A stretch of 64,000 nt of DNA from an uncultured delta proteobacterium (GTDB lineage Bacteria > Desulfobacterota > Binatia > Binatales > Binataceae). The notes below the pieces were generated by a model, which saw nothing but the letters and a program-made list of their open reading frames with translations, made no database searches and was not told where the DNA came from. The DNA lies in assembly GCA_963724765.1 (NCBI GenBank), contig CAVRVY010000004.1, positions 288,001 through 352,000 on the forward strand, in the 5' to 3' direction. Position 1 is the first letter of the stretch; each line of letters starts with the position of its first letter. This document shows positions 12,256-50,082 of the stretch, one piece after another. A program made the translations under genes and the position numbers.

Positions 12256-12383
12256 GAGCGGCAATATATTGTCACTTCCCTGGTCTGTTTGGAGCCAGTT
12301 TCTCGTCACTAGCTAATCCCGCGCCGTCTGCGCCGCGCAAATCCGCTCTTATTTCTACCTAATTTCCGGGCACGCTATGTGCT
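12256..12383 (+). promoter_or_regulatory. Sigma54 promoter (GG 12369/GC 12381) with upstream CAATATATTG enhancer, module copy 1
   Basis: GGGCACGCTATGTGCT; palindrome at 12262-12271; conserved in copies 2 and 3. Confidence 0.75.
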
Positions 12384-12587
12384 CCGGCGCAATGGGTCGC
12401 GCTAGAAGCGCGGGCGCGCGACACGTTGCGCGGACGATCCGCTCGAAGTCTTAACGCAAGGACGAGGGCACGCTGCTCAAGGCTCAGGTGGCCACGCGAT
12501 TCGTCCATAGCGCGGCGGCGTGAATTCGCCGGGGGGGGGTTGGTGGGGGAGTTCCGCCTAATCGCTTAAGCGCTTAGGCGCACGATT

Positions 12588-12650
12588 TCAATAGTCAGTC
12601 GGCGCCGGTGTACTACCGCGAGCGATTACTCGTCGCGCGGATCGCGCCGA
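12588..12650 (+). ncRNA. Conserved structured 5' leader element, copy 1
   Basis: TCAATAGTCAGTCGG; outer stem tcggcgc/gcgccga; apical GATTACT hairpin. Confidence 0.5.
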
Positions 12651-12678
12651 ACACGACGACAACGAGCAGGGAGTATCT

Positions 12679-14789
12679 ATGCGACGAGTCTTAGGCTTGG
12701 TCCCGGGTCCGATTCTGGTCGACGAAAGCGGACGTCACACGCGAGATATGCGGGCGCGCGCAACCCAGGCTCACGCGCTCCGGGCATACGCGCTCCGGGC
12801 ATACGCAAAGACGTGCCTGGCGAGCGCGGCGATGCTGATGACGGTTGGGCTCGGATGGGCGGTGGCCGCGCGCGCCCAGGCCAACATAACGCTCAGCAAC
12901 ACCGGCCTGACCGGCGCGATCGCCACCAATACGAACTGGTCGATTGCCAAAAGCGGGGGCGTCGCCAGCGGCACGGCGAGCTGGACGGTTGGGGTGACGA
13001 AGGTCTCCGTGAGCGATCAGATAATCGAGGTCGACGGCCAGGTCCGGATAAACAATACCGGCACGGGACCGGCCCCGCTCGGCAACATTATCGTCAATCT
13101 GCAGCGCCCCTGCGGTGCGGTATGGGTTTCGGCGGCGGCAGGCGTAGCCGACGCGACCTTCGGCCAGGCGGCAACTTACGGCAACTTTATCTCCACTGCG
13201 ACTTACGAGAACGCCACGCGCAACAGCCCGAGCTCGGCCTGCCGCGGACCGGGTAACTATGTGGTCACTACCACCGTCGACGGGCACGCAGTCAAGGAAG
13301 GCACGTTTTTCAGTACCGGCGCCTCGGGCAAGGTCGACTTCGTTAACGCGGCCGACAACTCGGTCTTCTCGATGGTGCCCGAAGTCCAACTGGCTGCCGG
13401 GGCATCGATCAGGCTCTTCTACACTGCGACCTTCGACAACACCATCCTGGGAATCGCGCCGGGAACCGAGCTGCGACCCGAGGTCATCGTCAGCGTGGCC
13501 GCCGCTCAGCAAACCGCCTTGAACGTGTCACGGCTCGTCGACGTCGACGACCAGGACGGGCCGGCCGGCGGAGACGACGCCGGATGGTCACAAAGCGCCG
13601 CGATACGGCAGTCGTTTAAGCCCAAACCAGCGCAGTGCAACCAGACCATCACGTTGAGCGACGCACGAAACAATAGCAATCCGGCGCTGACCGGAACCGC
13701 CACGATGACCAGCTTCACCAGCTTCAACGATACCGGGACGCTGACGATCGACGGCTCGTCGATGAGCGACGGGCAGACCAACACGCAGGACGTAAGCGCC
13801 GCGGTCAACGGCGGCGTCAGCGGCGGCACCATCACCAACTGCGCCGGCATCACCGGCCCCAACACGACCATCAAGCTTGTCGTGGGCAACTTCAGCAAGG
13901 TCTTCAGCGTATGCACCGGAGTAAACGATACCGCTTGCGATGAAGAGGACGTGCCCAGCAATGCGGGCCCGGCCACGCCTACTCCGGCACCGTCCCCGGT
14001 CGTGACGCCCACACCGGTTGTCACGCCCACTCCAGTCGTAACGCCCACTCCGGTTGTCACGCCCAGTCCAATCGTCACGCCCACTCCGGTCGTGACACCG
14101 ACGCCGACCGCCACGCCTACTGCTGTGGTACCGCCGTACAGCAAGAATGAGTTCTGCACCTACAGCGAGGCGCATTGGTCGCATACCTGCGGCGAATGCG
14201 ACGGCGGACGCTACGGCGGCGAAGAGCATAGCGCTGCGCAGAGCCTCAAGCACGGAGAGGATGATGACTGCGTCGGGGAGGGCAGTCAGGCCCATAACCT
14301 CTTGACCGAGAACTTCGACACCGTGTACGGCGCCAGCGGTGGCGTGCATGTAGGCCTCAGCTGCGCCAGCGATCAGTTCGGGATGACCTTCACCTCGGCG
14401 GCCGCGATCCAGAACTACTTGCCCGCGGGCGGACCGGCCGAAGTGCTCAACGCGTGTCTCGTCAACCCGTCAAGCTCGCACTCGGGCAATCTCGGCGGCG
14501 AAGTCCTGGCGCTGGAACTCAACGTCGACTTCAGCGCGGCCGGTATCACAGAGGGTACGGGTGGTCCGTTCGGTAACCTGAATCTGTGCGGCAGCGGCAC
14601 CTCGTTCGACGGCATGTCGATCGCGGAGATTCTCGCGGCCGCCAACAAGGCGCTGGGCAACGGCGGGATGCCCGCAGAGCTCGATCCAGACTCTCTGGCG
14701 ACCTGCTCCATCAGCTCAACAACTCGTTTGACGAATGCTATCCGCACGGTTTCGCCCAGAAGTACCTGACCGGCGGAGCTTGTCCGTAA
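12679..14789 (+). CDS. Secreted Cys-containing protein with Pro/Thr linker and uncharacterised C-terminal domain; apparent frameshift near 14697
   Basis: Signal peptide (…AARAQA), (VVTPTP)n linker; a more natural C-terminus GDLLHQLNNSFDEC…GGACP is in the shifted frame ending 14789 (unshifted ORF ends 14769). Confidence 0.75.
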
Positions 14790-14904: not shown

Positions 14905-16941
14905 TCAGCTGACCGCCGCGGCGGCTGACGATGACTGGCACAGCAGCGTCCGCGCGCAATAGGCAGCGGTTATCCGCCACACGGTTAGCGAAAATTGCTT
15001 GCGCAGCCGCTTGCCCGAAGCATCGATCACTCGAATCGTCGGATGCCAGGTGCCCTCCCTGGTTGCGACTCCCATGATAGCGCCGGCGGCCTGGTCGATC
15101 GAAAGGCCTGGCGGCAGGTAACCCAGGATCACGGCGATCGTATAGGGCGCGCGGCCACCGCTGATATCCAGCGAAGTATCGTAGATAACCGTGGTATGTG
15201 CGCTGGGTAAAATCGCACTGGCGCCAATCTTCAGCGGCGATGGCGCCGGGGTCGGCGTCGATGTAGGGGCCGCAGTGGGCGTCGCGGTCGGCTTGGGTGT
15301 AGGCGTCGCCGCAGGAGTGAGTGTAGCGGTCGGCATCGGTGTCGCGGCCGACGCGCCAGGGGTTATCGAGCCCCACCACGTACCCCACATATTGCTTTGA
15401 CCGGCGTACTCCTGGATGGTCCACATCGAGGTGTCGTCGACCGGATCGACCACGGTCGCGGTGAAGTCGCCCCATCGGTTCTCGCCGGTGCCGAAGTCCT
15501 TGAAGTAGGACGCCTCACCCGCCTTCAGGATCACTTCGCTTCCCATCGTGTTCGGAGGGTCGCTCGCCAGGTGTATCGAGTAGGCCGCGCTCGCATATAT
15601 CCCGGTCCCGAAATGTGTATAGCCGAGCATCATGTCGCCGTACTGGTTAACGGCCAGCGACGGGTAGGCGTAAAAGTTGGCGGCGCTGGGATCGTCGATG
15701 CGTCCGAACTGCTGCACCTGGCCAAACGCCGAGGCGCTCATATTGATCTGCCACCATTGCGCGGCAGTGCGAGTCGGAGTTCCAGTCGCGGGAAGGTAGA
15801 CGGTATGCGAGGCCCAGAGAGAGCCATTGCGATACACGCAGCTCTGGATCCGCCCGTCCTCGGTCTGGATGTTCTCGCTGGAGCCGAGTTGCGGAGCGAA
15901 ATTAGCGACCGGCGAGAACGCCTGCCAGGCCGACGGCCCGGTCGGATAGGCTACGCCGCTCGTCAGCACTTCGGACCCGACCGGGCCCGTTATGGTGTCG
16001 ACCCGGAGCTCGCCGGCACCCGAGCTGCTCTGCTCCAGCAGGTACATGGTCGAAAGATTGGGATCCAACGTAGTGGCCGGGACCTGAGTATAGCCACTGG
16101 TCGGTGTGAGCACGGTATATTTGCCCGTGCCGCCGGCGTACAGGTCTGCCTTGTCAAAAGCCCAAATCATCGAGTTGACGAAATTGTTGCCGGCGACGGT
16201 GAAGATGTTGGCCTGCACGACGATCCAGTTCTTATTGAATCCGAGGGTCGGATAATCGACCCAATTGACTGACGAACCAAGGTTTATCTTGTAGATATTC
16301 CAGCCGGCGGTGGGATCGCTGGTTTGCGAGACACCGATCAGGATGGCCGCGTTCGAGGACATCTCTCCGGCGGCGGATGAGAAGATCCAGCGTTGGGCAT
16401 ACGGATCGTAAAGGATATGCGCGTCGAATGACTCGGTCACGCCCAGAGCCGACCAGAAGGTCCAGTTGGTGATTGCGCTCAGAACGTTGCCCGACCTGTC
16501 CTGGATCACGACCTGGCTGTTGAGCGCTTCCATCAGATGATGGGGCCCGACCGCTCCCTCGGAGTCGGGCGGAATCACCGTGCCGTTGTCAGCCACCGCC
16601 AAGAAGCTGTTGACGGGCGGGAGCGATTGCACGGTCGAAACTGCGGGCGGCGGCGCTTCGCTCTCGGGCGCGGCAACCGCTTCCTCACTCTCTGTGGTGC
16701 TTTCGATTTGCGGTGCGAACGGGCGATGAATTTTACGATGCTCATTGAGCGGCATCGGACCAAGCGCCTCGTCACGAGCGACCCCCTTGAAGTTTATTGA
16801 GGCGCGCTGCGCCGCCTCGCCTGCCGTGCCGTTTACCTGGACCGGAGACGCCCCGGCGAGTGTTTGAACGGCGGCGACGCCTACAAGCGCGATAGCCGCC
16901 GAGAAAATAAATTGCCGAATTCGCCGCGTGGTCGATATCAC
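14905..16941 (-). CDS. Secreted protein: large beta-rich domain (PPD..AVGP…RWGD), Pro/Thr stalk, putative Ig (He_PIG) domain
   Basis: Signal peptide; GG.APY…LPPGLSID…G.I.G motif; paralog of 22166-24583. Confidence 0.8.
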   Translation of the reverse strand: MISTTRRIRQFIFSAAIALVGVAAVQTLAGASPVQVNGTAGEAAQRASINFKGVARDEALGPMPLNEHRKIHRPFAPQIESTTESEEAVAAPESEAPPPAVSTVQSLPPVNSFLAVADNGTVIPPDSEGAVGPHHLMEALNSQVVIQDRSGNVLSAITNWTFWSALGVTESFDAHILYDPYAQRWIFSSAAGEMSSNAAILIGVSQTSDPTAGWNIYKINLGSSVNWVDYPTLGFNKNWIVVQANIFTVAGNNFVNSMIWAFDKADLYAGGTGKYTVLTPTSGYTQVPATTLDPNLSTMYLLEQSSSGAGELRVDTITGPVGSEVLTSGVAYPTGPSAWQAFSPVANFAPQLGSSENIQTEDGRIQSCVYRNGSLWASHTVYLPATGTPTRTAAQWWQINMSASAFGQVQQFGRIDDPSAANFYAYPSLAVNQYGDMMLGYTHFGTGIYASAAYSIHLASDPPNTMGSEVILKAGEASYFKDFGTGENRWGDFTATVVDPVDDTSMWTIQEYAGQSNMWGTWWGSITPGASAATPMPTATLTPAATPTPKPTATPTAAPTSTPTPAPSPLKIGASAILPSAHTTVIYDTSLDISGGRAPYTIAVILGYLPPGLSIDQAAGAIMGVATREGTWHPTIRVIDASGKRLRKQFSLTVWRITAAYCARTLLCQSSSAAAAVS

Positions 16942-19062: not shown

Positions 19063-19108
19063 CGCCGGATCTCCTGATTCGCTCTAACAGCAAATGAGGT
19101 CATTGGAG

Positions 19109-20629
19109 ATGAAGCTTCCTTACCGTCGGCAGTTCTCTGGCCAGATTCTCATACTGGCAGCCATATCCATGGTCCTTTTGCTCGGCTTCACCGCGCTGGC
19201 GGTGGATATGGGTTACCTCTACTCCACGCGGCGGCGCATGCAGACAGCGGCCGACGCGGCGGCCGTGGCGGGAGCTACCGCGCTTCGCGACGGAGAGGAT
19301 TACACCAAGGCCGCCGATGACGTTAGTTCATTCAACGGCTTCGTCAACTCACAGAACAATGTAGCGGTGACGGTTAGCGAACCAACGCTGCCGTCGCCGT
19401 ATCCGAGCGATGTGACCTACGTCGAGGTCGACATCTCGCAGAACGTACCGACATTTTTCCTGCGCGTGCTGGGCTACAATTCCATGAAGGTGGCCGCGCG
19501 GGCGGTGAGCGGCGCCGTAGCCGGACCGGCCTGCATATACACACTTGCCCCGAGCGGTTCCGACACCTTCAGCTTAACCGGCAATGCCAACGTCACCGCC
19601 CAGTGCGGCCTAATCGACAATTCGAGTTCCTCATCCGGGCTTTCACTTACCGGCAACATCACACTGAAGGCCACGTCGATCGGGGTGGTCGGGAGCAGCT
19701 TTTCCAAGTCCGGCAATGTCACCATCTCGCCGCAGCCGGTCGAGAATCTCGCAGCGCTATCTGACCCGCTCGCGGGACGCGCCGCGAGCGCAGCGCCCAG
19801 CGCCGGCACCTGCACTCAGCAGACCGGCGCCTCCGGAAGCGAAAGCTGGAGTGGCAATATCGGCACGCTCACGGTCCCTGCCGGAGTATACAAGGACGGC
19901 GTCAGCATCAGCGGCAACGTCACCGCGGTAACCTTCTCCGCCGGCAACTATGGAAACACTGTCGACTTCAACGGCAACGGCGGCAACCTGACTTTCAATC
20001 CTGGCCAGTACCAGAATGGTGGCAGTGGCAACAGCATCACGCTGAGTGGAAATACCGCGACCACCTTCAATGCCGGAACGTACACGTTCTGCGGCGCGGT
20101 CGATATCACCGGCAACAGTAGTGTCACCCTGCAGCCGGGCACGTATTTTGGTGGAATCAGCATAACCGGCAACGCCAACGTGACCTTCAGTCCCGGCACC
20201 TATATCCTGGCGGGCGGCGGACTGACGGTTACCGGCAACTCCGCCTTGAAGGGAACCGGGGTCACCTTCTACAACACGAGCGCGACCGGCTATGCATACG
20301 CGCCGATCGATTTGACCGGCAATGAAACCGCAAATCTGAGTGCTCCCACCTCGGGGACCTTCGAGGGCTTCCTCTTCTTCCAGGATCCGTCGATCCCGGT
20401 CGGCTCATCCGGCATCACCGTAGTTGGCAACTCGTCGTCGACTTTCGATGGCATCGTCTACTCGCCCACCACCGCGATCACATACGTCGGCAACTCCAGC
20501 GGCTCCGGCTATACGATTCTGATCGGATATACCATCTCGGTGACCGGCAACTCTTCGTTTACCATCGGTAACAACTATTCTTCGCTGGCCGACGGCGCAC
20601 CGATAAAGTCGAGCGCACTCTATGAATAG
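19109..20629 (+). CDS. TadG-like pilus-associated protein with Gly/Asn beta-solenoid C-terminus
   Basis: GQ.LIL…LAVDMG…QTAADAAAVAGA Tad N-terminal motif; repeated (I/L)TGN. Confidence 0.85.
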   Translation: MKLPYRRQFSGQILILAAISMVLLLGFTALAVDMGYLYSTRRRMQTAADAAAVAGATALRDGEDYTKAADDVSSFNGFVNSQNNVAVTVSEPTLPSPYPSDVTYVEVDISQNVPTFFLRVLGYNSMKVAARAVSGAVAGPACIYTLAPSGSDTFSLTGNANVTAQCGLIDNSSSSSGLSLTGNITLKATSIGVVGSSFSKSGNVTISPQPVENLAALSDPLAGRAASAAPSAGTCTQQTGASGSESWSGNIGTLTVPAGVYKDGVSISGNVTAVTFSAGNYGNTVDFNGNGGNLTFNPGQYQNGGSGNSITLSGNTATTFNAGTYTFCGAVDITGNSSVTLQPGTYFGGISITGNANVTFSPGTYILAGGGLTVTGNSALKGTGVTFYNTSATGYAYAPIDLTGNETANLSAPTSGTFEGFLFFQDPSIPVGSSGITVVGNSSSTFDGIVYSPTTAITYVGNSSGSGYTILIGYTISVTGNSSFTIGNNYSSLADGAPIKSSALYE

Positions 20630-21107
20630 CCATCGCTCGAACGCCAAGACGCCTGTGCCGGGACGGCGGCGCTTTTGGGCCGCGCGTGGCCAGAGCTATG
20701 TCGAACTGGCTTTCGCGCTGCCTGTGCTCGCGCTCATTCTGGTGGTGGCAGCCGACTTCGGACGGCTCTTCTACGCCTATCTCGAGGTGATCAATGCCGC
20801 GCGGGCGGCGGCACAGTACGGATCGAATAGCGTCATCACCGCCGCCGACTCAACCGGGATGGTCGCGGCGGCCAAGCAGGACGGTATTAATGTTGCCAAT
20901 CTGACGGTCACCGCCAGCCAGTGCACGTGTGGAACCGCGACCGCATCCGTTCCCGCCTGTTCGTCGAATTACTGCACCAATGACCCGCAGGGGAACTATG
21001 TTGTGGTCAATACACAGGCTCTCTTCAACACCCTGGTAAAATACCCTGGGGTTCCTTCCTCGGTCACGCTGAAAAGCCAGGCCGTGATGCAGGTTCAACA
21101 ACAATGA
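20622..21107 (+). CDS. TadE/TadG-family pseudopilin
   Basis: RGQSYVELAFALPV…DFGR…NAARAAAQY. Confidence 0.88.
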   Translation: MNSHRSNAKTPVPGRRRFWAARGQSYVELAFALPVLALILVVAADFGRLFYAYLEVINAARAAAQYGSNSVITAADSTGMVAAAKQDGINVANLTVTASQCTCGTATASVPACSSNYCTNDPQGNYVVVNTQALFNTLVKYPGVPSSVTLKSQAVMQVQQQ

Positions 21108-21538
21108 AGCGACCGTTCATCTCTGCGCTGGCGAAGCATTCTTCAGGCGCGACGGCGGTGGAGTTTGCGTTAGGCAGCACGATCTTTCTCCTGCTGACGT
21201 TCGCGACCATCGAGTTGGCGATGGTGGTGTATTCGTACAACACCATCAGCCATGCCGCCCGCGAATGCGTGCGCTATGCGATCGTACATTCGCCGACCGG
21301 CCCGAATCCCGCGACCACCTCGCAGATCAAGAGCATCACGGTTGCTTATGCTGATCTGCCGGCGCCAAACCAGCTATTACCCGGTGATGTCGCGGTAACC
21401 TGGCCGGCCGATCCCAATCTGCCCTCCTCCGACGATGCGCAATGCACCGTCTCCCTGAATTACAGTCTGCGAATACCTTTTCTGCCGTCCAAGACCCTGC
21501 CCCTGACCGCGACCGCGCGGATGCTCGTTTCCCAGTAG
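21104..21538 (+). CDS. TadE-family pseudopilin
   Basis: SGATAVEFAL…AARECVRYA. Confidence 0.88.
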   Translation: MKRPFISALAKHSSGATAVEFALGSTIFLLLTFATIELAMVVYSYNTISHAARECVRYAIVHSPTGPNPATTSQIKSITVAYADLPAPNQLLPGDVAVTWPADPNLPSSDDAQCTVSLNYSLRIPFLPSKTLPLTATARMLVSQ

Positions 21539-22165: not shown

Positions 22166-24583
22166 TTACGAACCGATCGATATCTGAAACGTCCGGCTCG
22201 CCGATGCGTGACCCCGGTCAGTGACGTAGACCGTGAAGCTCGAGACCCCCGCGAAGCCCGGCGTCCCGCTGATCTCGCCGCTAAAGGTATTGAGCGCGAG
22301 TCCGCGCGGCAGCGCACCCGCACTGACGTAGACGAGATAGGGCGGCGTACCGCCGCTCAACTCCAGCGAGGCGTGATAGAAGATGCCGACGCTGCCGCCG
22401 GAAAGCGTCGCGGCGCCGATCGTCAGCGTCGGAGTGGGCGTCGCGGTCGGGACCGGTGACGGCGTGGGATTGGGTGTAGGCGAAGACGTCGGCGCCGGGG
22501 TCGGCGTTGGAGTCGGAGTCGGCGATGGTGATGGCGTTGGGCTTGACGAAGAAACCGGTGTCGGTGTGGGCGTGGGGGTGGAGGTCGGCGTCGGTGATGG
22601 CGTTGGAGTCTTCGAAGGCGTTGGAGTCGGAGTCGGGGTTGCCGTGGGCGTTGGAGCTGGGGTCGGCGACGGTGACGGCGTGGGCGTAGGCGAAGCGGTG
22701 GCGGTAGGCGTTGGCGAAGCGGTGGTGGTCGGTGTCGCCGTGGGCGTTGCACTGGGTGTAGGGCTAGGGGTCGGCGTCGCTCCTCCTCCTATAGATAGCT
22801 CGGCCCACCAGGTGCCCCAATCGTTGTCGGTCGCTGCATACTCCTGGAGCGTCCATAAGCTGAGATCGTCGATCGGATCCACCATCGTGGTGCTAAAATC
22901 GCCCCATCGATTGTCTCCGGTGCCGAAGTCCTTGAAATAAGGCGCCTGGCCCGCCTTGACCACGGTGCTTGGGGCGCGCAATGTACTGGGCGCGTCAGTA
23001 CCCATCCGCATCGAGAAGCTGGCGCCCGCGTACTGCGCCGCCGAAAACTGAGCGTACCCGACCATCGCGTCGTTTTCCGAATTGACGCCGATCGAGGGGT
23101 ACGCGAAAAACTGTTGCGCAGTCGGGTCGTCGATCCGCCCAAGCTGCTGGATTCCGCCCAAGTCGCCCGCTGTTGTGTCGATCTGCCACCACTGCACCGA
23201 GCATCGATTGGGCGTACCGCTGGCGGGCAGGAAAATGGTCTGCGCGGTCCACAGCGAGCCGTTTCGATAGGCCGTCCAATCCAACCGATCGTCGTCGGTA
23301 TCGATGTCTTCGGTCGATCCCAGTTGCGGTGCGAAGTTGATCGTAGGCTCTACCGCCTGCCACGGCTGCGGTGAAGTCGGCAAGGCGACGCCGGTAGTGA
23401 GGACCTCGGAGCCGACCGCGCCGGTGATCGTACTCATCCGCAGCAGGCCGTTGGCCGAGCTCCACGACTCCAGAAGATAGAGCGTCGTGAGATTGGGATC
23501 ATAAGTTAGCGCCGGATTCATCGAGAAACCGCCGGTATCGTCCTGCATCAATGTAAAGAGCCCGGAACCACCCGCGTAGAGGTCCGCCTTGTCGAAAGCA
23601 TAGATGTTCTCATACTCGAAGAAAGTGCCCTGGATAGTGAACAGGTTGATCCCGACCACGATCCAGTTTTTGTTGAACCCAACGATGGGAAAGTCGCCCC
23701 ATAGCTGGCCCGTAGCATCGACCGGCACACGGTAGAGATTCCAGCCCGCGGTCGGGTCACTGTTCTGCGAGACGCCAATCAGGACCGCGGAGCCTGAAGT
23801 CTGCGGGTCACCCGCGGTGATGATAATCCATCGCTGACCGTACGGATCGTATACCACTCGCGGATCGGTGATGGCGCCGACGCCCAGGCTGGACCAGAAA
23901 CTGAGCAGGCTGGCGGTGCTTATCGGCGTACCCGTGCGGGTCTGAATTTCGATCTGACTATTGAGCGCCAGGACCAGATTGTCCGGTCCCACGGCACCGT
24001 CGGCGTCGGGCGGAATCGCGGTGTTATTGTCGCCGAGTCCCGCAAACCCGCTGAGCGTTTCGTCCGTCAGGTTTTTGGCAGGCGTGAGGATCGCCGGCTT
24101 TTTCGGCTGCACCAGCGGCACTTCAACGAGGGCCGGAGTCGCAACAAATGGATTGCCTTGCGGGCGTACGCCGAGATGACGGCGCGCCGGCATAAGGATA
24201 CCGCGCGCTTCGTCACGGGCGAGCGCCCTGAAGTTTATCGTGACATGAACGGAAGCGTGGTCGGAGCGTCCGGCGATCCGTCGCGCGACGGGAAACGCCT
24301 GGCGTGACGCAACCGCTCCCGAAGCGGCAGCCGCTCCTGAGGTGACAGGAGCCGCGGAATATGCGTTGGAATTGCCACCAGGAGTACTCTCGGCGCTGGG
24401 CTCGTTTGCAGCGGGGGTGTTTGCTGAGCTTGCCGTCGTGCCCGTCGCGAGACTTGTCTCAAAATTTCTCTCGAGACTTGCCGCGGCCCATGGCCGGGCG
24501 ACAACGAGAGCCGTCCATCCCGTTATCAGCAGAACCATCAGCCGCACAACGGTCGCAGACCGCTTGCGGATAGGTTTTGTCAA
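22166..24583 (-). CDS. Secreted protein paralogous to 14905-16941, long Pro/Thr stalk and He_PIG Ig domain
   Basis: Shared motifs [40 protein letters not shown]. Confidence 0.82.
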
Positions 24584-33688: not shown

Positions 33689-35152
33689 ATGAGACTTCCG
33701 GCGCTTAATCTTAAAGCCAAGCTGATGGCACTGATGGTGGTGCTGCTGGGGTTGACGCTCGGCGCCGAGCTGATGGTCAGCCTCAACACCCAAAACCGCA
33801 TCGTGGAGGCGACCCAGGACAACGTCAAGGAACTCGCAAGCGCGATCCAGATCAGCGTGCAGGAGCTGACCTCGGTCGGCACGTTCGATCGCGATCGCCT
33901 GCAAAACTACGTCAACTCGCTGCACAACAACGGACTCGAAGTCTCGATTGCCTCGAGCAAGGACCTGATCATCAACAGCTCCAACCCGGCGCTGATCGGC
34001 GAGGCGATCAACCGCGGCGCGGTCCACGTCGTGGCGGCGCAAAACGCAACGCGCGGCGGCGACCCGCTCTCAGTGCCGGCCTTCACCGTCGGCCCGGCCG
34101 GCGAGCAGACCGTCTACCTGATCCCGGTCGAAGTTGAAGACCACCTGCTCGGCTACGTCCAGGTGGTGGCTGACTTCGCAGATTTTGCGCGGCCGCTGGA
34201 GGAGCATCGCATCCACCTGTTGACGGTGGCCCTGGCGATCTTCGCGATCGGGCTGGTGTTCTCCTACGTGCTGGCCGATCGCTACGTCGAACCGATCCAC
34301 GCGGTCGCCGCCGCCGCACAGAACATCGCCGCGCGCGGCCTCGAACCGGTGCCAGAGGCGCACCGGCGCGACGAGATCGGGCTGCTCACGCGCAGCTTCA
34401 ACGAGATGGTCGACCAGTTGCGCCGCGCGCGCGAGCGCGAGGCCGAACTCAACCGGCTGGAGCGTTTCACCGCGCTCGGCCAGCTCGCCGGCGCGTTGGC
34501 GCACGAGATCAAGAATCCGCTGAATTTCATCAGCCTCGCGATCGACCAGCTACGCGCCCGCTACGCGCCGCAACTGCAAAACGACCAGGATAATTATCGC
34601 CGCCAGCTGGCAATCATGAAGGACGAGGTCCATCGCCTCTCCGAGCTGATCCAGAGCTTCCTCAACTACGGCCGCCCGATCGAGATCCATCCCGCACCCA
34701 CCGACGTGCGCGCACTGGTCGACAACGTGCTGGAGCTCTCGGACTCCAAGCTGCGCAGCCAATCGATTCACGCACTCAAGCGAGGCGCCGAGGCGCCCGT
34801 GGTACTCAACGTCGACGCGGAGAAGCTTCATGCCTGTTTCATCAACGTAGTGGCGAACGCGATTCAGGCGATGCCCGAGGGCGGAGAACTCAGCGTCGCG
34901 TTCAAGCGCGACAGCGACAACGAGGTGATAACCTTCTCTGACACTGGCGCGGGCATCGACCCCGAAGTCGCCAGCCACGTCTTCGAGCCGTTCTTCACCA
35001 CCAAGCGCGAAGGTATCGGCCTCGGCCTGTTCTTCTCGCGTGCGATCGTCGAGCGCCACGGCGGCACGATCACGATCGGCTCCAACCCGGCCGGACGCGG
35101 CACCACGGTGACTTTCATCCTGCCGCTCGGCGCACTAGGTAGACATACATGA
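33689..35152 (+). CDS. HAMP-domain sensor histidine kinase
   Basis: Two TM helices, HAMP, AHEIKNPL, FEPFFTTK..GIGLGL. Confidence 0.95.
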   Translation: MRLPALNLKAKLMALMVVLLGLTLGAELMVSLNTQNRIVEATQDNVKELASAIQISVQELTSVGTFDRDRLQNYVNSLHNNGLEVSIASSKDLIINSSNPALIGEAINRGAVHVVAAQNATRGGDPLSVPAFTVGPAGEQTVYLIPVEVEDHLLGYVQVVADFADFARPLEEHRIHLLTVALAIFAIGLVFSYVLADRYVEPIHAVAAAAQNIAARGLEPVPEAHRRDEIGLLTRSFNEMVDQLRRAREREAELNRLERFTALGQLAGALAHEIKNPLNFISLAIDQLRARYAPQLQNDQDNYRRQLAIMKDEVHRLSELIQSFLNYGRPIEIHPAPTDVRALVDNVLELSDSKLRSQSIHALKRGAEAPVVLNVDAEKLHACFINVVANAIQAMPEGGELSVAFKRDSDNEVITFSDTGAGIDPEVASHVFEPFFTTKREGIGLGLFFSRAIVERHGGTITIGSNPAGRGTTVTFILPLGALGRHT

Positions 35153-36570
35153 GCCAACCGTCGGTACTGGTGGTCGAGGACAACGACCTGGAGCGGCAAG
35201 TAACCGTCGAGACGCTGCGCGAGGAAGGCTTCCTGGTCGACGAAGCGCCCAATGGCAAGCGCGCGATGGAGCAGCTCGCGCTGGGCAGCTTCGACGTCGT
35301 GCTGACGGACCTGATGATGCCCGGGATGACCGGCGAGGAGTTGCTCGCCGCCGTGCGCCAGGCCTATCCGGGCAGCCAGGTCGTGCTGCTGACCGCGCAC
35401 GGCACTATCGAGAGCGCGGTCAAGGCGACCAAGAGCGGCGCCTTCGAATATCTGACCAAACCGACCGACCGTGAGAAGCTGGTGATGACGGTCGGCAAGG
35501 CGGCCGAGTTCGCGAGCCTCACGCAGGAGAACATCCTGTTGCGCACGCGGCTTGAAGGCAAATTCCAGGTCGAGGGCATCATCGGGCAGCATCCCGCGAT
35601 CGAGGACGTCATCCGCGTGGTGCGCAAGGTCGCGCCATCGTATTCGACGGTGCTGATCCAGGGCGAGAGCGGCACCGGCAAGGAGGTCATCGCGCGCGCA
35701 ATCCACAAGCTGTCGCCGCGCGGGACACGCCCCTTTGTGGCGATCAACTGCTCGGCGATTCCCGACAGCCTGATCGAAAACGAACTGTTCGGCCACGAGC
35801 GCGGAGCCTTTACCGGAGCCAACGAGCGCAAGATCGGGCTCATCGAAAGCGCCGACAAGTCGACGCTCTTCCTCGACGAGATCGCCGACCTCAACATCGG
35901 CCTGCAGGCCAAAATTCTGCGCGTGCTTCAGGAGCGCGAGTTGCGTCGCGTGGGCAGCAACGAATCCATCCGGGTCGACGTGCGCCTGGTCGCCGCCACC
36001 AACCGCGACCTGTCCGAAGAGGTCGCCCAGGGGCGCTTTCGCGAGGACCTCTACTACCGCATCAACGTCGTCACCATCACCCTGCCGCCGCTGCGCGATC
36101 GCCGCTCGGACATCCCGTTGCTGGCGGAAAACGCGCTCAAGAACCGTTTCGCCCACCTCGCGCAGAACCGGGTCAAGGAGATCAGCCGCGAGGCGATGGA
36201 GGTGCTGCTCGACTATTCGTGGCCGGGCAACGTGCGCCAGCTCGAATCAGCGATCGAACGCGCCCTGCTCCTGTGCGAGGGCGAGCGCATCATGCCCAAG
36301 GACCTGCCGCAGGAAGTCCTGGCGCGCAAGATGCCCGCCCGCGCCGCCGAGCGCGCGCGCGTAGAGCGCTTCGAGATGCCCGCCGAGGGAATCAATTTCG
36401 AGAATCTCGAGCGCGACCTTATTCTGCAAGCGATGGAACGCGCGGAGTGGGTGATCGCCAAGGCGGCCAAGATGCTCGGCATGAGCTATCGCACGCTGCA
36501 GTACCGGCTGGACAAGTTCGGGATCAAGAAACCCGACGGACGCTCGCAGCCAGCCGACATCAAAGCTTGA
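35149..36570 (+). CDS. Sigma54-dependent response regulator (NtrC/AtoC/PilR family)
   Basis: Receiver domain, [24 protein letters not shown], Fis-type HTH. Confidence 0.96.
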
Positions 36571-44863: not shown

Positions 44864-44913
44864 AGCGACGGCGGGGCGGGGCTGCGATGCAGCCCCGCCC
44901 CGCCGTCGCGTTT
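44864..44913 (+). terminator. GC-rich hairpin terminator after frd operon
   Basis: gcgacggcggggcggggctgc-gat-gcagccccgccccgccgtcgc then gttt. Confidence 0.75.
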
Positions 44914-44944: not shown

Positions 44945-45042
44945 CAGCGCCAATATATTGTCACTCCCCTAGCCAATCCATTTCCTCTTCTCCGCGCAGA
45001 TCTTAGTTATTTCAATCTCATTTCTCGGGCACACAACGTGCA
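44945..45042 (+). promoter_or_regulatory. Sigma54 promoter (GG 45028/GC 45040) with CAATATATTG enhancer, module copy 2
   Basis: GGGCACACAACGTGCA; palindrome 44951-44960. Confidence 0.75.
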
Positions 45043-45119
45043 ACTGCTCGCGCCCGGTGGGTGCGCATTCGAGACACGCTGCGACGTGTCGGCGAAAAGC
45101 ATGGACGGGGGCCTTCACT

Positions 45120-45197
45120 TCAATAGTCAGTCGGGGCCGACGCGCTCGCGATGATTACTAATCGCGGGTATCGCGCGCTCAGCCATCGGGCCCGACG
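45120..45197 (+). ncRNA. Conserved structured 5' leader element, copy 2
   Basis: TCAATAGTCAGTCGG; outer stem gtcggggccga/tcgggcccgac; cgcgat-GATTACTA-atcgcg. Confidence 0.5.
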
Positions 45198-45255: not shown

Positions 45256-47123
45256 ATGCGCAAGGGCAAACTCAACAGAATATGGTTCATGGCGTTGCCC
45301 ATGTTCGTTTTTATGGTCTTCATGACGGCGTGCAGCGGCGGCCATAATGGAAATGAAGGACCGCATCCATCGCCCCCAACTGCCACCGTCATTCCAACTG
45401 CCACCGTCATCCCGACTGCGACTGTCGCTCCGACTGCCACCGCCACCGCTACTGGCACCGCAACTGCCACCCCCACCGCGACCCCAACCCCGGTGGCACC
45501 CACGGTGATTTCGGTCGACCCTCCCATCGTAGGCTGTGGGGGGCAGGGGATGCCTGTCAATCGGAAAGTCACCGCGACCTTCAGTGAAGCGATGAAGCTC
45601 TCAACCATCACCGAATCAACCTTCACGGTGACTGGGCCTGGCCTGACTCCCGTTGCCGGAACTGTTACCTATGATGCGACCAACCACATCGCGATCTTCG
45701 CACCACCTGGCACTTTCGCAGCCGGCACAGAATTTACTGCGACGATTACAACCGGGGCTCAGAGTCTGGCAGGCGCTCCGTGGCGGCCAACTTCGTGTGG
45801 ACCTTCACAACCGGTGCGAGCTCTGACACGACCGATCCAACGGTGACCTCCACTAACCCCGCCAATCTTGCCGTCGATGTGGCCACCAATCAGAAGATCA
45901 CCGCAACCTTCAACGAAGGGATGAATTCTTCAACCCTCACCGCCGCGACCTTTACTTTGACCGGACCTGGCGCAACACCCATTCCAGGCACGGTGACCTA
46001 CACTACCATTGGTACAAGTGCGACGTTTAAGCCGAGCAGCGCTCTCGCATCCAATACTCTGTTTACGGCGAAGATTACCACGAGCGTCAAGGGTCTCGTC
46101 GGAAATCCGTTGGCAAGCGCGTTTACCTGGAGCTTTACCACCGGTGCGATCCCCGACAGCACCGCACCCACAGTGAGCTCCACGACCCCTACCGATGGCG
46201 CCACGGGTGTGTCCCTCAGCGCTGCAGCCAACGCAACGTTCAGCGAGGCGATGGACCCTGCAACCATCACCACCGCGACGTTTGCGGTTACTGGGCCTGA
46301 CACGACTCCCGTAACAGGAAAAGTCTCTTATGATGTGTCGTCCCAGATCGCGACCTTTACTCCTGCAAGCGCTCTCGCAGCCAGCACGACATTTACCGCC
46401 ACGATTACAACCGGAGGCAAAGACCTGGCAGGCAATGCACTGACGAGTGACTTTGTATGGAGCTTTACCACCGGTTCAACAGCGGGTCCGGCACCGATAG
46501 ACCTCGGGGCAGCGAGTAGTTTCGCGGTTCTGGCTCAAGCCACAGTCACCAACGCCGGCCCGACTGTGCTTGATGGAGATCTTGGATTGAATCCCGGGGG
46601 CTCGGTGACCGGATTTCCACCGGGAACAGTGAACGGGACAATTCAAATTGACAATGCTCCTGCAATCGCGGGCATTGCCTCTCTGATGACCGCGTACAAC
46701 ACCGGGATCTTGCTACCAGCAGGAACCGCAGTGTCGGGCGATATTGGCGGGCAAGTCCTTCCCCCCGGCCTCTACACGGCTCCGACATCACTGTTCATAA
46801 CGTCGGGGGATCTCACTCTCGACGCCCATGGCGACGCGAATGCAATCTGGATCTTCCAGATCGGGTCCACCCTAATAACCACCACCGACGTCGGCAATGT
46901 TATACTGGCCAACGGCGCGCAAGCTTCCAATGTCTTTTGGCTGGTCGGCAGTTCGGCGACGATTGGCATCGGAACTACGTTCCAGGGAACCATCCTGGCT
47001 AATACGTCAATTACGGTGACGACCGGCGCAACGCTGAACGGCAGAGCGTTGGCAGGTGCCGTCGCTTCGAGTGGCGCGGTCACCTTGGACACCAACAGTT
47101 TCACGCTGCCCGTCTGTCATTGA
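45256..47123 (+). CDS. Lipoprotein with Pro/Thr stalk, three Big_5 (SbsA-like Ig) domains and C-terminal ice-binding-like DUF3494 domain; frameshift near 45780
   Basis: Lipobox-like MTAC; ATFSEAM/FVW.FTT repeats; [40 protein letters not shown]; ORFs 45256-45846 and 45780-47123 join as AGAP(L)AANFVW. Confidence 0.85.
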
Positions 47124-47165: not shown

Positions 47166-47199
47166 CGTGGAAGCGGGGCTCTTTTGCCCCGCTCCCACG
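47166..47199 (+). terminator. Hairpin after first DUF3494 gene
   Basis: cgtggaagcggggc…gccccgctcccacg; no clear T-tail. Confidence 0.45.
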
Positions 47200-47364
47200 T
47201 CGTGCCCAGCCACACCAATTTAGACTCTATGAGCGGCGTATCGCATCTCATCACGTCCGACAAATCAGGATACTATCCGCGCGCCAAGGGTCAGATCAGG
47301 GTGGTTACCCAGTAGTCCACCTCGGCCGGGCCACGGTGGCTTGATCGGTGCATATCCTGCCGCT

Positions 47365-47490
47365 CCAGCGGCAATATATTGTCACTGCCCGATAGGTTTG
47401 CGGCCGGCTTTTAGTCACTAGCCAGTCCGTTTCCTCTTCGCCGCGCAAATCGAACTTATTTCACGTCGTCTCCTGGGCACGCAACGTGCT
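47365..47490 (+). promoter_or_regulatory. Sigma54 promoter (GG 47476/GC 47488) with CAATATATTG enhancer, module copy 3
   Basis: GGGCACGCAACGTGCT; palindrome 47372-47381. Confidence 0.78.
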
Positions 47491-47560: not shown

Positions 47561-47642
47561 TCAATAATCAGTCGGGGCCCGCGCGATCGCGATGATGACT
47601 CATCGCACGCATCGCGCGTTCAACTACCTGGTCCGCGGCGAC
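47561..47642 (+). ncRNA. Conserved structured 5' leader element, copy 3
   Basis: TCAATAATCAGTCGG; cgcgcgat…gcgatga-TGAC-tcatcgc…atcgcgcg. Confidence 0.5.
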
Positions 47643-47688: not shown

Positions 47689-50082
47689 ATGTCATCAAAT
47701 GCGGAGCGAAGCACGCGGATATGCAAGAGCAAACTTCTCCAGGCGTGGTCCATGGCCTTGCTGATATCCGTCTTTATGCCCTTCGTTGCCGCTTGTGGCA
47801 AAAGTAGCGAACGCGCAGGGCCCACTCCACCGCTCCCAACCGTTACTGCCACCCCGATCACTCCAACTGCCACCGCTACTCCAACCGCAACTGCCTCACC
47901 CACTGTCACCCCAACCCCGGTTCCGAGTCGTACGCCAACGCCTACGCCAATTCCGACGCTGACTCCGACCCCAACTCCAACTCCGACGCCAACGCGGACA
48001 CCGACGCCGACGCCAATTCCGATAACAACTTCAACACCAACGCCAACACCGACACCGACTCCAACTTCAACTCCAGCCCCGACTCCAACACCAATTCCGA
48101 CCCCGACTCCGACGCCAGTCCTGACCCCGACCCCGACCGCCACCCCAACACCCGCCTCGCCTACCGTGACTTCAACGGTCCCGGCTGAGGCTGCCTCCGG
48201 AGTGCCGGTCAGCAGCGCCGTCTCCGCGAGCTTCAGTACGGCGATGGATGCCGCAACCCTCGACGCAACAACCTTTACGGTGACAGGACCCGGCGGAGTT
48301 GGAGTAGCGGGAACCGTCGCCTATGACGCGCCAACCAACACTGCGACCTTTACGCCGTCGAGCAGTCTGGCGCCCAACGTCACCTTCACGGCCACGATTA
48401 CCACCGGAGCCGAGGACGCCGCACACGACGCGCTGGCGAGCGACTTTGTTTGGAGCTTCACGACCCTTGCGCCCACGGTGACATTTACGACTCCAGCCAA
48501 CGGCGCCACAGGTGTGCCGCTCAACCAGAACGTCACCGCCACCTTTAGCGAGGCCATGGACCAGACCACCATCAACACGACCACCTTTACGCTGACAGGA
48601 CCCGACGCCAGCCCAGTCAGCGGCAACGTGAGTTACGTTGCGAACGGCTCGGCAGCGATCTTTGCGCCAACAGATGCGCTCGCTGGCAGCACCACGTACA
48701 CGGCCACGATTACAACCGGCGCCACCGACACGACGACCAATCCGCTTGTGACCAGCTTCGTATGGAGCTTTACTACCGGCGCGGCTCCGGTAGCTATTCA
48801 TCCGGACGTGACTTCAGAGGCACCACCCGTTGACGGATCCGTACTTGTACCGATCAACACCCGGCTCACCGCAACGTTTAGCGAGGCGATGGAGCCGGCA
48901 ACTATCGACGCAACAACCTTTACCGTGCAAGGACCCGGCATAACGCCGGTTTCAGGCGCCGTGAGCTATGCTGACGGAGGCGCGACCGCGACCTTCGCCC
49001 CAGCAGGGAATCTCGCCGACAGCACCACGTATACTGCCACGATTACAACCGGCGCCACCGACACGGCAGGGAATGCGCTGTTAAATGACTTCGTATGGAC
49101 TTTTACAACCGGCACCGCTTCAGACACGATCATCCCGACCGTGCTCTCCACGAACCCGGCTGCCGCCGAAACCAGTGTGTGCCTCAACCAAAGCGTGAAT
49201 GCCACTTTCAGTAAGGCGATGGACCCGACGACCATCAACAGCGCAAACTTCACAGTGACAGGACCGGGCGTCTCTCTCGTGACCGGAACGGTTTCCTACG
49301 ATCCGGTAAATTTCATCGCGACCTTTACTCCACAGAGCGAGCTCGCTGCGAATACCCAATTTGTTGCGATGATTGCCACCGGGGTCAAAGACACGGCCGG
49401 CAATGCACTGGCTAGTAACTTCGTATGGAGCTTTACAACCGGAGCAACATCGACACCGTCATGTCAGGCGACGGTGCCTCTTGGAGCGGCGGGCACATTC
49501 GCGGTTCTGGCCGGCTCGACGGCTACCAATAGTGGCCTTACTATGGTTATCGGGGATATTGGTGTGAGCCCTGGAACGGCGGTGACCGGGTTCCCGCCCG
49601 GAATACAGAACGGGACGATGCACGATGGCGATGCGGTCGCCGCCCAGGCCAAAGTGGACCTTGCCACGGCGATTAGCCTGGCCACGGACCGTTCCAATCC
49701 TGGGCTCTTGCCGATCGAGATAGGCGGACTCACTTACACGCCTGGCGTCTATATGGCCGGAGCCGCACTTGGCATAACCACAGGGAACCTCACTCTCGAC
49801 GCGCAGGGCGATGCGAACGCCGTCTTTATTTTTCAGATAGGGTCGTCACTTACGACGTCAACATCAAACCAGATTATCCTGGCCGGCGGCGCCAAGCCCG
49901 CCAACATCTTTTGGCTAGTGGGCAGTTCGGCGACTCTTGGAGGAGGCTCCATCTTCCAGGGGAATATACTGTCGGCGGTGTCGATCACCGTAAATTCGGG
50001 TGCAACGATTAACGGCAGACTACTGGCACAGAGCGGCGCGATCACCCTATTGACTAATGCCGTCACAATACCCGGCCCGTAG
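47689..50082 (+). CDS. Lipoprotein with long Pro/Thr stalk, four Big_5 Ig domains and ice-binding-like DUF3494 domain
   Basis: Lipobox VAAC; (TP)n; four ATFS.AM…FVWSFTT repeats; DUF3494 motifs. Confidence 0.9.

Follow-up and report, generated by a model that had tools for sequence, protein, structure and literature searches.

Among the enhancer-binding proteins, FleQ is a regulator of adhesin and matrix genes. In the part of the source available to us, the FleQ box of Pseudomonas is given as GTCaNTAAAtTGAC and this consensus is characterized as a poor predictor, with 536 genome matches (PMC6120874). For Geobacter sulfurreducens, the accessible sections of the corresponding source assign pili and surface functions to the RpoN regulon, quote TGGCACG-N4-TTGCW as consensus and report that validated promoters match 9-11 of 13 consensus bases (PMC2725144). 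Our literature search retrieved no work linking the ice-binding domain DUF3494 with sigma-54 and, among the matches listed, no account of transcriptional control in the Binataceae, which are an uncultured lineage. We analysed a 64-kb stretch of DNA from a soil bacterium of this lineage (the window). Three of its intergenic regions carry a cassette that looks like a sigma-54 promoter combined with an activator-binding palindrome and a conserved leader stretch.

An ordered cassette in three intergenic regions

The three intergenic regions are located on the plus strand at 12.25, 44.94 and 47.36 kb, and in each of them a 20-bp imperfect palindrome is followed by an A/T-richer block, by the motif GGGCAC-N5-GTGC and by a leader box (Table 1). 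A first-pass annotation of this DNA had listed shared ordered blocks and, when we inspected the sequence and the alignment, all of them were found at the positions given. The homology continues past these blocks into the 5' leader. The 15-mer CAATATATTGTCACT occurs as exact plus-strand match at exactly three sites (12262, 44951, 47372). When imperfect reverse readings were included, there were 6 matches with up to 3 mismatches (0.24 expected), and none of 100 shuffled sequences reached this number. GGGCAC-N5-GTGC is present in exact form at 12368, 45027 and 47475, and the GG-N10-GC spacing is also exact. For the leader box TCAATA(G/A)TCAGTCGG we counted 3 matches (12588, 45120, 47561) vs 0.11 expected, and no shuffled sequence out of 100 had as many.

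Table 1. Features of the window that are discussed in the text
Feature	Position	Strand	Sequence or content	Remarks
Copy 1, putative activator site	12257..12276	+	AGCGGCAATATATTGTCACT, core CAATATATTG at 12262-12271	centre 102 bp upstream of GG
Copy 1, possible weaker second activator site	12291..12310	+	ends GTCACT (12305-12310)	34 bp after first
Copy 1, A/T-richer spacer block	12327..12355	+	TCT..CCGCGCAAATC..TTATTTC	about 15-40 bp upstream of GG
Copy 1, sigma-54-type promoter	12368..12383	+	GGGCACGCTATGTGCT	GG 12369-12370, GC 12381-12382; predicted start ~12394
Copy 1, leader element	12587..12647	+	box TCAATAGTCAGTCGG (12588-12602)	HMM E 5.9e-15
Gene 1, secreted protein	12679..14789	+	ORF 12679-14769, 696 aa	no Pfam or NCBIfam match
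Sensor kinase and NtrC-family response regulator	33689..36570	+	kinase 33689-35152, regulator 35149-36570	Pfam
Copy 2, putative activator site	44946..44965	+	AGCGCCAATATATTGTCACT	centre 72 bp upstream of GG
Copy 2, spacer block	44992..45013	+	CCGCGCAGATC..TTATTTC	alignment
Copy 2, sigma-54-type promoter	45027..45042	+	GGGCACACAACGTGCA	GG 45028-45029, GC 45040-45041; predicted start ~45053
Copy 2, leader element	45119..45176	+	box TCAATAGTCAGTCGG (45120-45134)	HMM E 1.2e-16
Gene 2, lipoprotein	45256..47123	+	lipobox FMTAC, Pro/Thr linker, Big_5 repeats, Ice_binding (DUF3494)	Pfam
Copy 3, putative activator site	47367..47386	+	AGCGGCAATATATTGTCACT	centre 99 bp upstream of GG
Copy 3, second GTCACT	47414..47419	+		33 bp after first
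Copy 3, spacer block	47441..47462	+	CCGCGCAAATC..TTATTTC	alignment
Copy 3, sigma-54-type promoter	47475..47490	+	GGGCACGCAACGTGCT	GG 47476-47477, GC 47488-47489; predicted start ~47501
Copy 3, leader element	47561..47617	+	box TCAATAATCAGTCGG (47561-47575)	HMM E 1.6e-15
Gene 3, lipoprotein	47689..50082	+	lipobox FVAAC, ~130-aa Pro/Thr linker, four Big_5, C-terminal Ice_binding (DUF3494)	Pfam

A profile search with the copies had been proposed earlier. For the window, we built such profiles as a 3-sequence HMM and as 7-sequence HMMs, and the scans of all 64 kb recovered only the three known copies. Here, the next best matches had E-values of at least 0.7 (3-sequence) and at least 1 (7-sequence) when reverse readings of the palindrome were set aside. 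These window scans detected no further cassette copy in front of other secreted genes or of Tad-like genes.

The palindrome had originally been described as perfect. A perfect 10-bp core does exist, but it is the middle part of a longer dyad of 20 bp, which is imperfect: AGCG(G/C)CAATATATTGTCACT. The distances from the start of this core to the GG (107, 77 and 104 bp) were read from the sequence and agree with those reported before. Copies 1 and 3 carry the second GTCACT that had been noticed downstream of the first one (Table 1), and the alignment also bears out that copy 2 lacks about 30 bp at this second half-site. By hand count, the second site of copy 1 equals the main 20-mer at 13 of 20 positions. 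In copy 3, the left arm is shared with a second small dyad, TGCCGC-TCCA-GCGGCA (47358-47373). A function of the palindrome as terminator was rejected, since no T run follows it in the window; the one weak terminator call, in copy 3, corresponds to the small dyad (TGCCGC/GCGGCA) that overlaps the left arm. Among the literature matches listed for the palindrome core, there was no bacterial regulator site of the cassette type.

Related loci and downstream genes

We searched for the 20-bp dyad AGYGRCAATATATTGYCRCT in 185,579 species-representative genomes by an exact-pattern scan, which yielded 21 loci. The source genome of the window was not among them. We found the whole cassette at 5 of these 21 loci, all of which originate from four MAGs titled 'uncultured delta proteobacterium'. 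At these five loci, the nhmmer E-values were between 3.6e-32 and 6.6e-17 for the promoter part and between 3.8e-10 and 1.7e-5 for the leader, and GG(C/T)AC-N5-GTGC follows 82-94 nt after the dyad in each case. The remaining 16 loci belong to unrelated taxa (e.g., Vibrio, Shewanella, Bacteroidales); there, A and T runs surround the 20-mer in most cases, in a terminator-like manner, and the rest of the cassette is absent.

Two of the five loci (L002, L014) represent the orthologous locus of copy 1 and gene 1, and the upstream flank aligns in both. According to Pfam, the genes upstream of L002 encode a trypsin-like protease and a fatty-acid hydroxylase. The other three (L010, L013, L020) are mutually 97-99% identical. 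Downstream of L010 and L020, a lipoprotein is encoded that resembles the products of genes 2 and 3 in its Pro/Thr linker and its Big_5 repeats, and both loci have thiC upstream on the opposite strand; by DNA identity, L013 is of the same locus type. All eight copies, six of which are distinct, face the gene downstream. At the second half-site, the aligned stretch ...TCTCGTCAC... is retained in L002, L014 and the L013 group and is missing from copy 2. A count on the alignment places the second GTCACT-type site of the L013 group about 24 bp after the first.

The sequence elements of the cassette, their conservation and their geometry can be seen directly in the alignment of the copies. Overall identity between the copy types among the six distinct copies is 51-71%, and at least three consecutive columns are invariant only in AGCG, CAATATATTG, TCT, TTA, GTGC, TCAATA, TCAGT and TCGC; the GG is invariant too. 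AGCG together with CAATATATTG thus makes up the invariant part of the dyad, TCT and TTA that of the spacer block, in which GCGCAAATC is kept in 5 of the 6 distinct copies, and TCAATA and TCAGT that of the leader box. When we compared the window with L010 and L020, the coding DNA of gene 2 was about 80% identical and the intergenic DNA could not be aligned by blastn, with the blocks being exact. Exact blocks in a diverged spacer are the pattern of selected sites, which argues for selection acting on the cassette. Decaying neutral duplications, the scenario that had been put forward as counter-explanation, are contradicted by the conservation of the cassette at orthologous genes in four MAGs.

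As to the products of the downstream genes, the earlier description as secreted, Pro/Thr-stalked proteins was correct, since each of them has a signal peptide or a lipobox plus a Pro/Thr-rich linker. The product of gene 1 carries a Sec-type signal ending in AQA. Its N-terminal region is beta-rich, and a Pro/Thr linker is followed by a C-terminal domain that belongs to an unnamed family. The reading frame contains a frameshift near 14700, so that the last ~30 codons are out of frame when compared with the homologues, and the homologue-like end stops at 14789. Orthologues of gene 1 are 58-81% identical, and the L002 protein is 70% identical over its full length (MAFFT). BLASTP of gene 1 against this L002 orthologue gave only a 105-residue match, which we took for an effect of composition adjustment. 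In a word-index search the protein appeared orphan-like (6 close relatives among 37 matches), but this classification was overturned by a full profile search: 2376 representatives reached E <= 0.001 and 226 reached E <= 1e-30, and the halves of the protein occur separately. Among 25 relatives scanned, 11 carried cell-surface-type domains (Big_9, cadherin-like, He_PIG, HYR, SdrD_B, thrombospondin, Ig repeats, type IX secretion tails), 1 showed only a chance-level match and 13 had none. Structure prediction for the C-terminal domain was confident, with a mean pLDDT of 79.5 and a core above 90, and no fold match in the PDB was obtained for this domain at E <= 0.001. For the whole protein, AlphaFold2 with 7 sequences reached a mean pLDDT of 31. 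Structural feature matches of the N-terminal part (up to 0.88, CARDB/DUF11-like) are to be taken as a lead only.

Genes 2 and 3 are tandem paralogues. Gene 2 is divided into two ORFs by a frameshift near 45780; Pfam detects Big_5 in both of them (1.5e-14, 1.4e-49) and Ice_binding at 1.2e-52. The corresponding values for gene 3 are 4.6e-84 (Big_5) and 5.4e-59 (Ice_binding), and its product matches the PDB entry 6eio at 2.9e-52. The best BLASTP alignment between gene 1 and gene 3 had an E-value of 0.44, so that these two are not similar. Since the cassette is carried by two unrelated gene families, in the relatives as well as in the window, the module is indeed reused irrespective of the coding sequence. 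The step from there to a dedicated surface-protein regulon was not supported: the window has only three such promoters, and two other secreted proteins with Pro/Thr linkers, encoded on the minus strand at 14905-16941 and 22166-24583, have no cassette. These two are further paralogues, and He_PIG was detected only in the 14905-16941 product. Proteins of this kind are therefore not generally marked by the cassette.

Putative promoter, candidate activator and leader

The arrangement described above leads us to infer the use of sigma-54, the binding and looping of an activator, the position of the start site and the co-regulation of the genes; each copy is probably a complete, separately transcribed sigma-54-dependent regulatory cassette. 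The 20-bp dyad and, where present, the weaker site about three helical turns downstream would be bound by an enhancer-binding protein that acts as a dimer and has a Fis-type helix-turn-helix. The A/T-richer intervening DNA with its conserved block would allow this activator to loop onto an RNA polymerase-sigma-54 complex, which would wait as closed complex on GG-N10-GC, and ATP hydrolysis by the activator would then open the promoter. Transcription would start about 12 nt past the GC and yield a leader of 190-285 nt, in which the conserved box may constitute a second layer of control. In the Binataceae, the cassette would drive at least two unrelated families of exported proteins, the gene 1 type and the Big_5/DUF3494 lipoproteins. 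Since one cassette precedes both families, these genes would be switched on together by one signal.

The assignment to the sigma-54/enhancer-binding protein architecture made by the first-pass annotation is supported in part, by the GG-N10-GC element, the consensus match, the enhancer distance and the conservation; the missing IHF consensus and a promoter core that is itself a dyad speak against it. When compared with TGGCACG-N4-TTGCW, copies 1, 2 and 3 agree at 10/12, 9/12 and 10/12 bases, which corresponds to 2, 3 and 2 mismatches to TGGCACGNNNNTTGCW. All three window copies have G in place of two consensus bases, namely the T that precedes GG and the initial T of TTGC. GG and GC with their exact spacing are invariant in all eight copies. 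The 20-bp dyad has the arrangement expected of an enhancer, which is a dyad-symmetric site 70 bp or more upstream, conserved in position and often paired with a second site: its centre is 72-104 bp away from the GG, and a second GTCACT-type site follows in copies 1 and 3 and in the L013 group. In the six distinct copies, the distances from dyad centre to GG are 102, 72, 99, 104, 103 and 92 bp, or 9.71, 6.86, 9.43, 9.90, 9.81 and 8.76 helical turns. Relative to copy 1, the distance is shorter by 30 bp in copy 2 and by 10 bp in the L013 group, and copy 3 is off by about one third of a turn. The 30-bp and 10-bp changes, which are two independent events, roughly preserve the helical face, but this is suggestive only. 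The IHF consensus is WATCAANNNNTTR. Its best matches in the enhancer-promoter spacers of the six distinct copies had 2-4 mismatches; of 500 shuffles, between 124 and 500 were equally good.

A candidate for the activator of the cassette is the response regulator that is encoded next to a sensor kinase (Table 1). It contains a Sigma54_activat domain (2.4e-72), an HTH_8 domain of the Fis type (7.8e-16) and the GAFTGA motif, and its best NCBIfam models are AtoC/NtrC-like, all of them under the cut-off. This protein is the only enhancer-binding protein of the window, and its gene lies 8-21 kb away from the cassette copies. The closest named relatives come from Candidatus Binataceae (76-94% identity). 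With 5219 proteins at E <= 1e-100, the regulator has a much wider conservation than the dyad, which was found in four related MAGs. rpoN was not found in the 64-kb window, and the GAFTGA activator encoded there suggests that the organism uses sigma-54.

The leader box could act as an RNA site or as a third protein site in the DNA. In copies 1, 2 and 3 it is located 205, 78 and 71 nt downstream of the GC element and 91-136 nt upstream of the start codons; copy 1 contains about 115 additional nt between promoter and box, which are missing from its orthologues. That the box is invariant at 11 of 12 positions in the six distinct copies, while its distance to the promoter varies between 71 and 205 nt, speaks for a reading in which the main control resides in the RNA leader. 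Box and flanking hairpins would then form a cis-regulatory RNA with a binding site for a ligand, a protein or a small RNA, and the retention of the cassette in front of unrelated genes would be due to this RNA element. Such a leader would be compatible with sigma-54-dependent transcription. In every copy, the leader flanks are able to pair around the box and they use different sequences to do so. However, when the box was held unpaired and the 20/16-nt flanks of 7 sequences were compared with shuffled flanks, the z-scores of the pairing energy ranged from -3.0 to +0.2, fewer than 5% of the shuffles were as good in 1 of 7 sequences, and only copy 1 was clearly better. RNAalifold did not reveal a convincing common leader structure, neither with 3 nor with 7 sequences, and the distinct copies are too few for covariation. 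Rfam 15 gave 0 matches at gathering score in the window, and at E <= 5 only two eukaryotic families at chance level were reported (17.6 and 19.5 bits vs cut-offs of 80 and 75). By reading the sequence, we found no conserved upstream ORF in the three leaders. A leader peptide was rejected: a short ORF spans the box in copy 2, but in copy 1 a stop is found right upstream, and an in-frame start is missing from copy 3. On balance, we consider it rather unlikely that the main control is exerted by the leader RNA.

A more far-reaching proposal is that, in the Binataceae, a small group of exported surface proteins specific to the lineage, with the DUF3494 lipoproteins among them, is turned on by one enhancer-binding protein through the cassette, and that the invariant leader box is a new element, either a cis-regulatory RNA or a site for protein binding, that gates their translation or stability. 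This proposal is speculative and we hold it with little confidence. If true, it would tie sigma-54 signalling to ice-binding-like adhesins.

Alternatively, the dyads might be operators of sigma-70-type regulators, with the real promoter, a weak or lineage-specific sigma-70 or ECF promoter, being located elsewhere (e.g., near the leader box) and the likeness to sigma-54 promoters being incidental. It is in keeping with this scenario that the promoter core GCAC-N5-GTGC is an inverted repeat itself, which matches on the reverse strand too in copy 2 and could serve as repressor or activator site, and that the leader box is conserved as well as the promoter. Moreover, sigma-54 consensus matches with up to 3 mismatches are no commoner in the window than by chance (93 vs 108 expected), and owing to this lack of enrichment the case for sigma-54 rests on conservation and not on the match alone. 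On the other hand, the GG is invariant and the base following GC is A or T in every copy, which agrees with the sigma-54 consensus, whereas a symmetric operator would have C at this position. A consensus scan found 0 sigma-70-like promoters in the three regions, with no sigma-70-like hexamer pair in any of them, and by eye there is no conserved -35/-10 or ECF-like pair near the leader box. Finally, the distance of 72-104 bp and the roughly phase-keeping length changes suit looping. With these data at hand, operators of sigma-70-type regulators appear improbable.

Functionless leftovers of a recent segmental duplication or of a small mobile repeat, for which one might quote that genes 2 and 3 are tandem paralogues whose upstream regions were duplicated along with them, are highly improbable, since copy 1 precedes an unrelated gene, the cassette occupies orthologous positions in other species with flanks diverged beyond blastn and exact blocks (L010, L020), all copies share the orientation towards the downstream gene, and neither terminal inverted repeats nor target duplications, the marks of a MITE-like element, were seen in the three regions.

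Comparison with known systems

A sigma-54-dependent cassette, which is the reading that we prefer, has its closest counterparts in the classical sigma-54 promoters (NtrC/glnAp2, NifA/nifH, PilR/pilA). Like these, it combines a GG-N10-GC element of good consensus match and no -35/-10 pair with a dyad 70-105 bp upstream, a weaker second site about 3 turns away and an NtrC-family GAFTGA activator in the genome. It differs from them by a spacer without IHF consensus and by a long leader with an extra conserved box. The dyad sequence itself is different from the sites of NtrC, NifA and PilR. With the RpoN promoters of Geobacter sulfurreducens, as far as they are covered by the accessible sections of the source, the cassette promoters share the range of consensus match. 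In this bacterium, the same sections describe activator genes that often adjoin their targets (PMC2725144), whereas here the sole activator of the window is encoded 8-21 kb away.

The similarity to the FleQ box consists in a 14-bp dyad with G-N-C-A, an A/T-rich centre and T-G-N-C, and the window sequence GGCAATATATTGTC shares 11 of 14 positions by hand count, which should be regarded as a lead only. Unlike in the FleQ system, no FleQ-type protein was identified in the window.

The products of genes 2 and 3 resemble DUF3494 ice-binding proteins with tandem Ig-like domains in that Ig-like repeats are followed by a C-terminal DUF3494. A match to the Shewanella frigidimarina protein of PDB entry 6bg8, which we take to be an ice adhesin, was obtained at 2e-25. 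Unlike in the Shewanella frigidimarina type, the repeats are Big_5 and not Big_2, and the NCBIfam ice-binding equivalog scored 107 bits vs a cut-off of 400. This architecture is very widespread across phyla, with at least 7945 of 8000 candidates scored reaching E <= 1e-20, and ice binding is therefore not implied.

The cassette allows us to predict which surface proteins are co-expressed, and its conservation among species makes it a test object for pairing an activator with its targets. With 12-15 nt, the leader box is a defined element that can be tested for post-transcriptional control. Judged by its sequence, the cassette has the architecture of a textbook sigma-54 promoter with upstream activator sequence, here from an uncultured lineage. 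It also exemplifies how one promoter cassette is reused with genes that are unrelated. The sole part that the sigma-54 architecture leaves unaccounted for is the leader box.

Dyad architecture and leader region of the cassette

The 20-bp dyad of the cassette, which we consider a candidate activator site, shares its left arm in copy 3 with another, smaller dyad, (T)GCCGC-TCCA-GCGGC(A) (window 47358-47373). The small dyad is also present in copy 2, in L002 (a relative's locus orthologous to copy 1) and in the group of L013 (a locus of the gene 2/3 type). Because the two dyads have this arm in common, the hexamer GYCRCT occurs three times in alternating orientation. Judged from the sequence, the candidate activator site may have a more complex layout than a single dimer site.

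Among the six distinct copies (window and relatives combined), 11 of the 12 positions of the leader box are invariant, and its distance from the promoter varies between 71 and 205 nt. No Rfam family matched the box, a hairpin at this site found no clear support and no leader peptide was found there. The copy 1 leader carries, in the region ~12396-12586 of the window, about 115 extra nt, which are absent from the orthologues L002 and L014. This stretch involves a G run (GGGGGGGGGTTGGTGGGGG) and, at 12467, a second GGGCACGCT 9-mer, which may be the trace of a partial promoter duplication.

Features of the window and their positions
Feature	Position (strand)	Remarks
Leader box TCAATA(G/A)TCAGT, copy 1	12588-12602 (+)	Box also in L002, L010, L013, L014, L020
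Leader box, copy 2	45120-45134 (+)	
Leader box, copy 3	47561-47575 (+)	
Gene 1, C-terminal domain	14131-14766	~170 residues
Secreted protein, C-terminal Pro/Thr linker	14905-16941 (-)	First of two paralogues
Secreted protein, C-terminal Pro/Thr linker	22166-24583 (-)	Second of two paralogues

Reading frames and borders of the genes downstream of the cassette

Two of the three genes downstream of the cassette (genes 1 and 2) carry a frameshift. When gene 1 was compared with four homologues, its final ~30 codons (window ~14695-14789) were out of frame, and the homologue-like C-terminal end (...LLHQLNNSFDECYPHGFAQKYLTGGACP) was found in another frame with a stop at 14789. In gene 2, a Big_5 + DUF3494 lipoprotein, the frame changes near 45780 (window ~45775-45785) relative to its L020 homologue, so that gene 2 is either a pseudogene or affected by an indel in the assembly. 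For gene 3 (47689-50082), the database entry P0165 comprises 626 residues and starts downstream of the Pro/Thr linker. This public call is probably too short, because a start at the upstream ATG (47689) brings in a lipoprotein signal as well as the linker.

GC-rich hairpins at 44867-44907 and 47172-47191 directly follow frdD and gene 2, respectively, and immediately precede copies 2 and 3, which fits with separate transcription units. Having no T run, these hairpins were not picked up by the terminator scan. The contigs of L013 and L020, which belong to one MAG, share a 2390-nt overlap (98.6% identity) located at the end of one contig and at the start of the other. This overlap is either a collapsed tandem duplication resembling genes 2 and 3 or an assembly duplicate.

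Other secreted proteins and the C-terminal domain of gene 1

The two secreted paralogues, the first of which involves a He_PIG Ig domain, flank TadG/TadE-like pilus genes (19094-21538, +). The cassette is absent from both paralogues, and a weaker sigma-54-like match (CGGCCCGCCTTTTGCT, two mismatches; 24797-24782, -) lies upstream of the 805-residue one.

For the C-terminal domain of gene 1, Pfam holds no model. Its AlphaFold2 model was confident (pLDDT 79.5), and a PDB fold search with this model gave no match. Relatives of the domain number in the hundreds, and proteins from other phyla combine it with Big_9, cadherin-like, He_PIG and HYR domains and with type IX secretion tails.
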